Positions 45,524-47,406 of a stretch of 64,000 nt of DNA are shown here, one piece after another. Under the pieces are notes generated by a model. That model saw nothing but the letters and a program-made list of their open reading frames with translations. It was not told the DNA's origin and made no database searches. The DNA lies in NCBI GenBank assembly GCA_040218735.1, contig JAVJQW010000012.1:46880-110879 (forward strand), read 5' to 3'. Numbering within the stretch: position 1 is the stretch's first letter; every line of letters starts with the position of its first letter. A program made the position numbers and the translations under genes. This DNA comes from Deltaproteobacteria bacterium (lineage in GTDB: Bacteria; Myxococcota; Kuafuiibacteriia; Kuafuiibacteriales; Kuafuiibacteriaceae).

Positions 45524-46600
45524 TCAAGCCTTCCGCGAGAGCGCGGCGCGGGCGACGACTTCGAGGGCGTCGCGAGCGGCGCTCGGCGGCAGCGTGGACA
45601 ACAGCTCGATCGCGCGATCCACGTGGGTGGTCGCGAGCGCCGTCGTCTCTTCGATGGCACCGGTCTTCTTCAGCGTCTCGGCGACGCGACCGGCGATGTC
45701 GGCGTCGACGCGCCCCTCGTTGGCGGCGCGTTGGAGCCAGGGGCGTAGCGACGGGTCCCGCTCCAACGCGAGGAGGATCGGGTACGTCACCTTGCCCTCT
45801 TCCAGGTCGATGAAGAGCGCCTTACCGGTCTGGTCGGCGTCCCCCGCGAGGTCGAGCGTGTCGTCGACGATCTGGAACGCAAGACCGAGGTGGCGGCCGT
45901 AGTCCTCGAGCGCACGCACCGCCGGCTCCGGGAGCCCGCCGGCGCGGGCGCCGGCCTGCATCGCCCACTTGAAGAGCGACGCCGTCTTGCCGTCGATGAC
46001 CGAGAAGTACACCTCGCGGTCGGCCATGAGGCGTCCGCGATGCTCGAGCTGGAGCGACTCCGCGACGATCATCGTGTCGATCGTCTCGAGCAGCTCGTCG
46101 AGGACGCGGTCGACGCCGGCCTTGCGGACGCGGCGGAGCGCCTCGATGAGGAGCCAGTCCCCGGCGAAGACACTCGCGGCGTTCCCGTACAGCAGGCGCG
46201 CGGTCGGCTCGCCGCGACGCACGGTGCCCTGGTCGACGACGTCGTCGTGCAGCAGGGTCGCGCTGTGGACGAGCTCCACGGAGACGGCGAGCTCACGGGC
46301 GCGCTCGTCGAAGCCCGACCCGGCGCGCGCGGCGAGCGCGACGCAGACCGGGCGGAGGCGCTTGCCTTCGAGCGACAGCAGGTGCCGCGCGCTCTTCTGC
46401 ACCAGGTCGTCGGCGGCGCCGAGGCGGGACAGGACCATCTCCACCTCGACGAGGTCGCCGGCCACGAAGCCGGCGAGATCCGAGATGGCGACCGCCAGCT
46501 GCTGCATCCCCTTGGCTTCACAGACGCTCTGTAGGCGGTTGAGGACCTGGGTCTCCACCGGCGGTTCGATGTTTTGGGCCAGCACTGCTCCATCCGTCAT
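45524..46600 (-). CDS. polyprenyl diphosphate synthase (IspB/octaprenyl-type)
   Basis: Starts at MTDGAVLAQN. Two aspartate-rich motifs, LLHDDVVD and FQIVDDTLD. Coordinates may be off by 1 nt here because the printed sequence and the ORF track are inconsistent around 46.5-46.7 kb. Confidence 0.8.
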   Translation of the reverse strand: MTDGAVLAQNIEPPVETQVLNRLQSVCEAKGMQQLAVAISDLAGFVAGDLVEVEMVLSRLGAADDLVQKSARHLLSLEGKRLRPVCVALAARAGSGFDERARELAVSVELVHSATLLHDDVVDQGTVRRGEPTARLLYGNAASVFAGDWLLIEALRRVRKAGVDRVLDELLETIDTMIVAESLQLEHRGRLMADREVYFSVIDGKTASLFKWAMQAGARAGGLPEPAVRALEDYGRHLGLAFQIVDDTLDLAGDADQTGKALFIDLEEGKVTYPILLALERDPSLRPWLQRAANEGRVDADIAGRVAETLKKTGAIEETTALATTHVDRAIELLSTLPPSAARDALEVVARAALSRKA

Positions 46601-46616
46601 GGGCTCTCCCTCGTTT

Positions 46617-46637
46617 CGTTGATTCAACATTCGTTGA
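46617..46637. promoter_or_regulatory. palindromic candidate operator GTTGATTCAAC / TTCAAC-ATTC-GTTGAA in the ispB-regulator divergent intergenic region
   Basis: A perfect inverted repeat TTCAACATTCGTTGAA is seen in an unusually AT-rich intergenic region. Confidence 0.5.
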
Positions 46638-46717
46638 ACTCCGAGGATTTCATTGCGATCCGAAGGATTCATGGGTCGGATCCGCGGCGAGCGGACTATG
46701 TCGCATCACCACGGGTT

Positions 46718-46733
46718 GTTCAATGGCTATTGA
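46718..46733. promoter_or_regulatory. second palindromic site TTCAAT-GGCT-ATTGAA, about 95 bp from the first
   Basis: A perfect 6-4-6 inverted repeat with the same half-site family. Confidence 0.5.
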
Positions 46734-46785
46734 ACTCGATGCGATCAGGTGACGTTTTTTCAACGCAACGCGACACGAAAGGAGT

Positions 46786-47406
46786 ATGGTGGTGAGCGTG
46801 GCGAAGCCGTCGAGCAACCGTGGCGCGCCTTTGGGCGCCGCGCCGAGCCCCGGCTCGGACCGACTCACACTGCGCGTCGTCGCCGTCTGTGACGCCGTTG
46901 GCGCCTATATCGAAGGTTGGGGCTTCCGGTCGATCCACGGCCGCGTGTGGGCCCTCCTTGCGATGCGCAGCGGACCCATGTCGCAGGCGGAGATCGCCGA
47001 AACCCTCGGCGTCAGCCGCTCGCTCGTGAGTTTGGCGATCTCTGAACTGACGCAGTTCGGCCTCGTCCGCCCCACCAGCGACGCCCGCAACGCGCCCTGG
47101 GAGCCGACCTGGGACGTGTGGCCGACCATCACAGACGTCATCCGATCCCGCGAATGGATGCAGATGGAGCGCGCGCGCCAGGCACTCGAGGCGGCCCTGT
47201 CCGAGGTTCAGTTCGCCCGCGACAGCGGCACCCCGTCCCCCTGGGACGAGCGGCGAATTCGACTGTTGTTGACGATGACCGAGTTCGCACAAGTCAGCCT
47301 GCGCGCGATCCTCTCGGTGCGGATGCCGCGCTCGCTCGACCAGTTCGGGACGTGGCTCGAGCGCAGCAGCCGGGTCATCGAGCGCGTGAAGAACTTCCTC
47401 CCCTGA
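46786..47406 (+). CDS. GbsR/MarR-family winged-helix transcriptional regulator
   Basis: AYIEGWGFRSIHGRVWALLAMRSGPMSQAEIAETLGVSRSLVSLAISELTQFGLV fits the GbsR-type HTH pattern. Confidence 0.7.
   Translation: MVVSVAKPSSNRGAPLGAAPSPGSDRLTLRVVAVCDAVGAYIEGWGFRSIHGRVWALLAMRSGPMSQAEIAETLGVSRSLVSLAISELTQFGLVRPTSDARNAPWEPTWDVWPTITDVIRSREWMQMERARQALEAALSEVQFARDSGTPSPWDERRIRLLLTMTEFAQVSLRAILSVRMPRSLDQFGTWLERSSRVIERVKNFLP

Follow-up and report, generated by a model that had tools for sequence, protein, structure and literature searches.

Conserved paired palindromes between a menaquinone operon and a divergent GbsR-type regulator gene in a deltaproteobacterium, and their probable role as operators

Background

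The GbsR-type branch of the MarR family is modelled on Mj223 (1KU9) (PMC7396694). Its known groups are linked to osmoprotectants (GbsR, OpcR, OpuAR and YvaV) and to cytochrome bd (CydE and CioR) (PMC6207618; PMC11837568). GbsR, OpcR, OpuAR, CydE and CioR are dimeric repressors (PMC7396694; PMC11837568). As a roadblock, GbsR represses from a position past the transcription start, and OpcR sits over the -35 element (PMC7396694). A 2018 survey of the GbsR family found osmoprotectant-linked and cytochrome bd-linked neighbourhoods, and mentions neither menaquinone nor Myxococcota or Deltaproteobacteria (PMC6207618). Here we analyse a 64,000 nucleotide stretch of DNA, hereafter the window, from a deltaproteobacterium of the Myxococcota (contig JAVJQW010000012.1 of assembly GCA_040218735.1, positions 46,880 to 110,879). 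In this window, the gene for a GbsR/Mj223-type winged-helix protein is divergent from a nine-gene menaquinone supply operon, and the intergenic region carries two palindromes, O1 and O2. Judged from their conservation and gene context, these are probably operators of the adjacent regulator and control the menaquinone operon.

GbsR, OpcR and OpuAR from Bacillus belong to the same structural subfamily as the present protein; they are homodimeric winged-helix regulators with genes beside their target operons (PMC7396694; PMC6207618). Their operators are AT-rich inverted repeats with spaced half-sites, and the repressor positions of OpcR and GbsR parallel those proposed here for O2 and O1, respectively. 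The operator of OpcR may be a 7-N8-7 repeat, TTGTAAA-N8-TTTACAA. The operator sequences of the three differ from the present motif, the GbsR half-sites being 4 bp apart. The three regulators control the uptake and synthesis of osmoprotectants, whereas the present regulator adjoins genes for quinone synthesis. They occur in Firmicutes and resemble the present protein at the profile level only, and the present protein is longer, with 206 amino acids and three long C-terminal helices. The Bacillus regulators respond to choline or glycine betaine as inducer, which binds in an aromatic cage near the linker. CydE has no aromatic cage, so the cage is not family-defining (PMC6207618).

CioR binds its own promoter in an electrophoretic mobility shift assay, and no operator motif was found in the CioR paper (PMC11837568). 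CydE from Alishewanella and CioR from Chromobacterium violaceum are GbsR-type local autorepressors of cytochrome bd operons and govern part of the quinone-dependent respiratory chain. Each is encoded at the head of its own target operon (cydEAB, cioRAB), whereas the present regulator is divergent. Their target is a quinol oxidase, not quinone biosynthesis; sulfate or metals are the reported effectors, and Proteobacteria the hosts.

QsrR and YodB of Firmicutes sense via cysteine; the present family, in contrast, has no invariant cysteine in an alignment of 28 homologs. Together with MhqR, which is MarR-type (PMC6798810), they are winged-helix repressors that respond to quinones. The genes under their control serve the detoxification of quinones and resistance to them, not the synthesis of menaquinone.

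The means by which bacteria adjust the amount of quinone have been called poorly understood (PMC12421875). The control described for menaquinone is mostly enzyme-level feedback on MenD and MenF. The literature we searched held only global regulators or enzyme-level control and no pathway-specific transcription factor for menaquinone synthesis, and a search for 'MenR' together with menaquinone gave no match.

Results and discussion

Two palindromes in the divergent intergenic region

The region 46600-46786 is a divergent intergenic stretch of 185 bp between a minus-strand ispB-like gene and the plus-strand winged-helix gene. Its guanine plus cytosine (GC) content is approximately 52%, compared with approximately 70% in the flanks. 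Per 100 bp, GC is 0.51-0.55 across 46550-46800 and mostly 0.65-0.78 on both sides, which agrees with the far lower local GC content noted in a first-pass annotation of this DNA.

The first-pass annotation also listed three palindromes of a TTCAAC/GTTGAA hexamer family within about 120 bp. All three are present, at 46618-46628 (GTTGATTCAAC), 46623-46638 (TTCAACATTCGTTGAA) and 46719-46734 (TTCAATGGCTATTGAA), with a total span of 117 bp. Only two of them stand as sites, O1 and O2, since the first overlaps the second and arises from the flank of O1. As a separate site GTTGATTCAAC was rejected: it is conserved in none of four close relatives, where its position reads GCTGATTCAAC, GCTTCTTCAAC, CCCGATTCAAC and CTTGGTTCAAC, the bases there being GCTGA, GCTTC, CCCGA or CTTGG.

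The hexamer description gives way to a longer motif. O1 and O2 are both copies of a 22-24 bp palindrome, (G)TTGTTCA-N8-TGAACAA(C), which in its 22 bp form has the architecture 7-N8-7. O2 matches the family consensus TTGTTCA-N8-TGAACAA and has the best score in the window with a position weight matrix built from the sites at the related loci (24.2 bits), followed by O1 (12.2 bits). Beyond these two, the matrix scan of the 64 kb window gave no site of at least 8 bits. O1 is found immediately ahead of the Shine-Dalgarno sequence of ispB, at 22-39 nt upstream of the ATG. It is conserved in the four close relatives (L001 and L081-L083), and most of the more distant loci with ispB as the first operon gene have a site at the equivalent position. 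Coordinates of all features are given in Table 1.

The pattern TTCAAY-N4-RTTGAA occurs exactly twice in the 64 kb, both times in this intergenic region, and had 0 occurrences in 100 dinucleotide shuffles. As a local null we used 20,000 dinucleotide shuffles of the 185 bp region alone, so that the lower GC was kept. Two TTCA-N8-TGAA sites were found in 0 of these shuffles, the strict pattern at least once in 3, and any two 6-4-6 palindromes in 37.

Conservation of the palindromes

The locus set comprised 80 genomic loci of homologs and three closer loci from an exact-protein look-up, or 84 loci when the window is included. A close alignment compared the intergenic region of the window with those of the four relatives, at 75-89% identity between the regulators. 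What stays invariant in it coincides almost exactly with the two boxes, TTCAAC...TGAAC and TTGTTCAAT...TTGAAC; beyond these, a short GATCA is conserved, and so is a TAnnnT close to the start of the regulator. At more distant loci the boxes are retained while the surrounding sequence has diverged.

We also enumerated palindromes without bias, testing every 5-mer arm at each spacer length from 0 to 14 across the 300 bp that precede the regulator in 83 loci, and in 151 control windows. The top entries are successive registers of one motif. GTTCA-N8-TGAAC was found in 62/83 loci and 1/151 controls, TGTTC-N10-GAACA in 56 loci and one control, TTGTT-N12-AACAA in 50 loci and one control, and GTTGT-N14-ACAAC in 22 loci and no control. 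Upstream of regulator homologs, GTTCA-N8-TGAAC persists down to 46% protein identity. The looser GTTC-N10-GAAC is found in 75 of the 84 loci, at no more than approximately 520 bp upstream of the regulator.

Over the 500 bp that precede the regulator the exact core has a density of 1.92 per kb, against 0.028 elsewhere in 0.6 Mb of related loci, a ratio of 68-fold. The motif is thus conserved together with the regulator and rare elsewhere, as expected of a local operator. The first-pass annotation had taken the palindromes as operators of the adjacent winged-helix regulator, controlling the ispB-DAHPS-HMGR-men operon. It had proposed conservation upstream of orthologs as a check, and frequent occurrence at random places as a sign against it. 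The conservation, the rarity and the linkage to men genes all speak for its proposal.

Palindromes might also arise by chance in AT-rich promoter DNA, where a lower GC raises the odds of AT-rich repeats. The local shuffles, together with the 62/83 loci against 1/151 controls, refute this, and we attach next to no probability to it.

Another explanation is that the palindromes act as RNA, in the form of hairpins, an attenuator or a riboswitch in the operon 5' leader. RNAfold pairs the arms of O1 into a small hairpin, and box position 6 sometimes changes symmetrically. However, position 6 is often asymmetric (AA..GT 12 times, AC..AT 8 times), which leaves 5 bp stems with 8 nt loops, and the arms do not co-vary but keep an invariant sequence. 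Folding of the leader is no more stable than that of shuffles (z = -0.23). The best Rfam match had an E-value of 0.17 overall and none fell in the intergenic region at E up to 10, so we found neither a curated RNA match nor a fold stability above that of shuffles. O2 would moreover lie at or upstream of the candidate operon promoter and so be outside that transcript. We regard an RNA element as very improbable.

Some smaller elements accompany the boxes. A 7 bp inverted repeat, GATCCGA/TCGGATC (46657-46663 / 46676-46682), lies between O1 and O2 and is paired by RNAfold. Its counterpart in L081 reads GATTCGA/TCGAATC, with both arms changed. The operon leader may begin with a hairpin formed by this repeat. 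On the operon strand, GRAA is found 7-9 nt upstream of O1 in most ispB-first loci (ATGAAAT at 46647-46653 of the window), and (G/A)ATCA is found 7 nt past O2 (GATCAG at 46743-46748) and kept across the five close sequences. These two elements could be extra degenerate half-sites. GRAA was rejected as a -10 element because it lacks A2 and T6 of the sigma-70 -10, and (G/A)ATCA likewise does not fit a sigma-70 -10. A leader open reading frame (ORF) of nine codons, running from an ATG to a TGA inside O1 and also seen in L002 and L003, was rejected as well, since the spacing between ATG and box shifts by 1 nt in L013 and the frame is lost.

The regulator

The regulator is a GbsR/Mj223-type MarR-like winged-helix protein by profile and structure model. 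A search gave 309 homologs at E-values of at most 1e-3, almost all from Myxococcota-type metagenome-assembled genomes (MAGs), and several of these are named GbsR by JGI or NCBI. Pfam MarR_2 (PF12802) is passed marginally, with 30.3 bits against a cutoff of 27, and Pfam MarR (PF01047) is just missed, with 22.3 bits against 24.6. Several other winged-helix Pfam families also match. A profile of 28 homologs searched against the PDB gave 5JBR (E 8.5e-8) and 1KU9 (E 3.2e-7).

The AlphaFold2 model has a mean predicted local distance difference test score of 87.6 and consists of a winged-helix head followed by three long helices (121-146, 155-176 and 184-204). In a Foldseek search with this model, 5JBR and 1KU9 were the best PDB matches, followed by classical MarR proteins. 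Mj223 (1KU9) and the uncharacterised Bcav_2135 (5JBR) are thus the best matches in both profile and fold, at approximately 18-20% identity; they are shorter, with approximately 150 amino acids. An N-terminal winged-helix head related to Mj223 is what marks a protein as GbsR-type, and the present protein has it. GbsR-type proteins dimerise through a helical C-terminal domain behind a linker, and a palindromic operator fits a dimer.

In the recognition helix, S77, R78 and S79 never vary, and this matches the constancy of GTTCA. Also invariant are W45, F47, H51, W55, W112 and W190, and nearly so W124; W112 and W124 flank the linker.

A TAnnnT 6-7 nt before a conserved (A/G)TG is found in nine loci (the window, L001, L081-L083, L013, L044, L015 and L004). 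This points to GTG 46798 as the probable true start of the regulator, instead of ATG 46786 of the longest ORF, and suggests that its transcript is leaderless. The gene stands alone, the next gene being convergent and of the arginase family.

Box-like sequences were also seen within regulator genes. In the window, 47030-47047 in the recognition-helix codons resembles the box with two mismatches (GTTTG..TGAAC). Five loci (L023, L033, L038, L057 and L061) have the exact core inside the gene, at approximately +244 to +262. The intragenic box encodes S-x-A-I-x-E-L, with rare AGT/TCA/GAA codons.

The menaquinone operon and its gene order

The operon bundles ring-precursor supply, isoprenoid-tail supply and Men enzymes. 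In brief, ispB is followed by genes for DAHP synthase and a class II (NAD-type) HMG-CoA reductase and by menG/ubiE, menF, menD, menA, menC and hemH. The nine genes are tightly packed, with short gaps or overlaps. The operon thus pairs DAHP synthase of the shikimate entry, HMG-CoA reductase of the mevalonate pathway and IspB with men genes and ferrochelatase. We saw no menB, menE or menH in the examined part of the window. The ispB ATG at 46600 is consistent with the gene calls in L081-L084, and L081 has an identical operon gene order from independent gene calls. A near-identical contig, JAUIGK010000027.1, is part of MAG GCA_030429805.1.

Table 1. Features of the operon, the intergenic region and the regulator gene, in window coordinates.
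Feature	Position	Strand	Remarks
Rest of operon, eight genes	36815..45523	-	ORFs, translations, Pfam and NCBIfam matches
ispB-like long-chain polyprenyl diphosphate synthase	45524..46600	-	Operon gene 1; Pfam polyprenyl_synt E 2e-59
ispB Shine-Dalgarno AGGGAG	46606..46611	-	Read from sequence; 5 nt before ATG
GTTGATTCAAC	46618..46628	none	By-product of O1 left flank (GTTG) and left half-site
Operator O1 (putative), TGATTCAACATTCGTTGAACTC	46620..46641	none	Core 46622-46639, ATTCA-N8-TGAAC
Candidate operon promoter	46695..46723	-	Predicted; -35 TTGAAC 46723-46718, 17 nt spacer, -10 CATAGT 46700-46695
Operator O2 (putative), TTGTTCAATGGCTATTGAACTC	46716..46737	none	Core 46718-46735, exact GTTCA-N8-TGAAC
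Lone TTCAAC half-site	46759..46764	none	Unpaired; conserved in closest relative only
Candidate -10 TATGGT of leaderless regulator transcript	46785..46790	+	Predicted; 7 nt before GTG 46798
GbsR/Mj223-type MarR-like winged-helix regulator	46786..47406	+	206 amino acids as called

The regulator adjoins menaquinone genes in at least 77 of the 84 loci, in four arrangements, and most of the remaining loci are truncated. It is divergent from an ispB-first operon in 22 loci, the window included, from a menF-menD-first operon in 50 and from a menA-first operon in four. In a single locus (L049) the regulator is co-directional with the men genes, and 31 nt separate the box from the start codon of menF downstream. 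Regulator, box and men genes thus stay together through four rearrangements, as is characteristic of a local regulator with its operator.

Menaquinone loci with menF first have a second box inside menF, approximately 250-350 bp from the primary box and at roughly codons 90-155 (for example L028 3620, L035 3058, L065 3490 and L069 3502). It is always read as Cys-Ser-x-x-x-Glu, with TGT used in 23/23, TCA in 19/23 and GAA in 23/23 cases, in genomes of 61-70% GC. This codon choice in such genomes points to selection on the DNA rather than on the peptide. By analogy, the intragenic menF box may be an auxiliary operator in the style of lacO2. Two menF-first loci have extra well-formed boxes at the menF-menD junction, near the menD start (L043 at approximately 2522, L059 at approximately 2246), which suggests an internal control point.

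Candidate promoters and proposed mode of action

The -35 of the candidate operon promoter, TTGAAC, is the left half of O2 read on the operon strand. TTGAAC-N17-nAnAnT toward the operon is also present in L001, L081, L013, L004 and L039. On the operon side of the boxes, nAnnnT peaks at an offset of 17 (10/79 against a background of approximately 3). In 17 loci, mostly menF-first, the operon strand carries a TAnnnT ahead of the box, at a distance of up to 11 nt and mostly of 7-11 nt; it reads TATAGT in seven of them. This places the box at about the transcription start in these loci. In the window, O1 directly precedes the ispB Shine-Dalgarno sequence and any operon promoter must be at or upstream of O1. 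If the candidate promoter is correct, O2 covers its -35 and O1 lies at approximately +50 in an 88 nt leader.

We suggest that a homodimer of the divergently encoded regulator would bind O1 and O2, with one winged-helix head per GTTCA half-site, and act as a local repressor of the nine-gene menaquinone supply operon. Bound at O2, it would cover the -35 of the operon promoter; bound at O1, it would form a roadblock between the promoter and the ispB ribosome-binding site. A small-molecule effector may alter its affinity for DNA, by analogy with the family, and a metabolite of the menaquinone pathway or quinone pool is the candidate that the context suggests. Binding itself we infer from the co-occurrence of boxes, regulator and men genes. 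For its sign we lean towards repression, because every GbsR-type regulator characterised in the cited papers is a repressor, and the positions of the boxes suggest the same.

Should the regulator instead activate the operon, its own gene or both by recruiting RNA polymerase, the boxes would still be its operators. This is the main live alternative, though an unlikely one. The candidate leaderless start of the regulator lies approximately 71 nt downstream of the centre of O2, and the candidate -35 elements are weak, as they are at activator-dependent promoters, the scan having given no sigma-70 consensus promoter. On the other hand, O1 lies between any promoter and the ispB ribosome-binding site, and a TATAGT-like -10 immediately precedes the box in menF-first relatives. 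Between O2 and the regulator -10 there are 20 to 49 nt, depending on the relative, which is not the phasing of an activator. The repressors characterised in the family argue against activation too.

The regulator probably also modulates its own, apparently leaderless, gene. The first-pass annotation had proposed autoregulation. This fits several relatives, in which O2 abuts the -35 position of the regulator promoter, and fits the present locus less well. Autoregulation here is plausible but not secure, and less so than control of the operon, because O2 ends 49 nt before the candidate -10 of the regulator.

The palindrome in metagenome contigs and the identity of the binder

An exact scan of metagenome contigs with TTGTTCAAY-N4-RTTGAACAA gave at least 120 stretches. 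Among the matches listed, most are low-GC contigs without a regulator or men homolog nearby, and these are presumably chance. Four of the matches listed (L095, L129, L131 and L161) adjoin orthologs of the regulator and ispB. Also among the matches listed, TTGTTCAAT-N4-ATTGAACAA adjoins genes of ArsR-type (HTH_20/HTH_5) regulators in L115, L162 and L203. In L203 a divergent MFS transporter gene lies across the site from the ArsR-type gene, and an MFS gene is at the site in L183; the GC of contigs L115, L162, L183 and L203 is 0.61-0.68. An unrelated regulator family thus seems to use the same operator sequence.

The ArsR-type neighbours show that the palindrome is not exclusive to one family. 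A different factor, for example a global redox or respiratory regulator, might bind it in the window as well, with the GbsR-like protein recognising something else. We consider this improbable. Box and regulator occur together in 75/84 loci through four arrangements, and the absence of other sites from the 64 kb window and their scarcity in 0.6 Mb fit a local factor and not a global one. A recognition-helix residue also changes along with box position 6. All 17 loci with GTTCAA..TTGAAC boxes have L at residue 83, and the 19 loci with GTTCAC..GTGAAC boxes have G, A or M there, a contrast between two clades that is confounded by phylogeny and for that reason argues only weakly for the regulator as the binder.

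Several other points weigh against O1 and O2 as operators of the adjacent regulator in the arrangement proposed. The 22 bp palindrome beside ArsR-type genes means that the sequence alone is not diagnostic of its binder, and the case for the GbsR-type protein rests on context and conservation. O1 has A as its outermost base where G is otherwise invariant. Among relatives O1 and O2 are 86 to 151 bp apart, and helical phasing is not kept. A scan for consensus promoters and terminators gave nothing, both candidate promoters being weak consensus matches below its threshold. Finally, the centre of O2 near -71 of the regulator start would suit an activator and makes autorepression uncertain.

Two further occurrences of the palindrome were noted in contigs. 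In L154 it lies at 571-592, directly upstream of a distant GbsR-type protein (ORF 581-1177; 25% identity, hhalign probability 94%), which hints that operators of the TTGTTCA..TGAACAA type may be used more widely in the GbsR family. In two related high-GC contigs it is found approximately 70-90 nt upstream of secDF (L170 4779, L175 6755), which could be chance or reflect another binder.

Significance

What would be new here is a GbsR-type local regulator with palindromic operators on a new target pathway; the kind of regulator is already known.

More tentatively, we speculate that the protein may be the first dedicated transcriptional regulator of menaquinone biosynthesis, for which we use the name MenR: a GbsR-type protein that senses the quinone pool or a metabolite of the naphthoquinone pathway. 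This broader proposal is a possibility that we hold with considerable doubt. One operator type would then coordinate DAHP synthase, HMG-CoA reductase with IspB, and the Men enzymes across Myxococcota and Bradymonadia. Paired operators would cooperate through DNA looping, and some clades would embed one of the pair in menF codons at the cost of rare codons.

For the engineering of vitamin K2 production, regulator and operator could be used as a ready-made pair. With a conserved regulator, a defined 22 bp operator and an evident target operon, the question is open to direct test. For the GbsR family, control of menaquinone supply would add a third functional group, one related to respiration.

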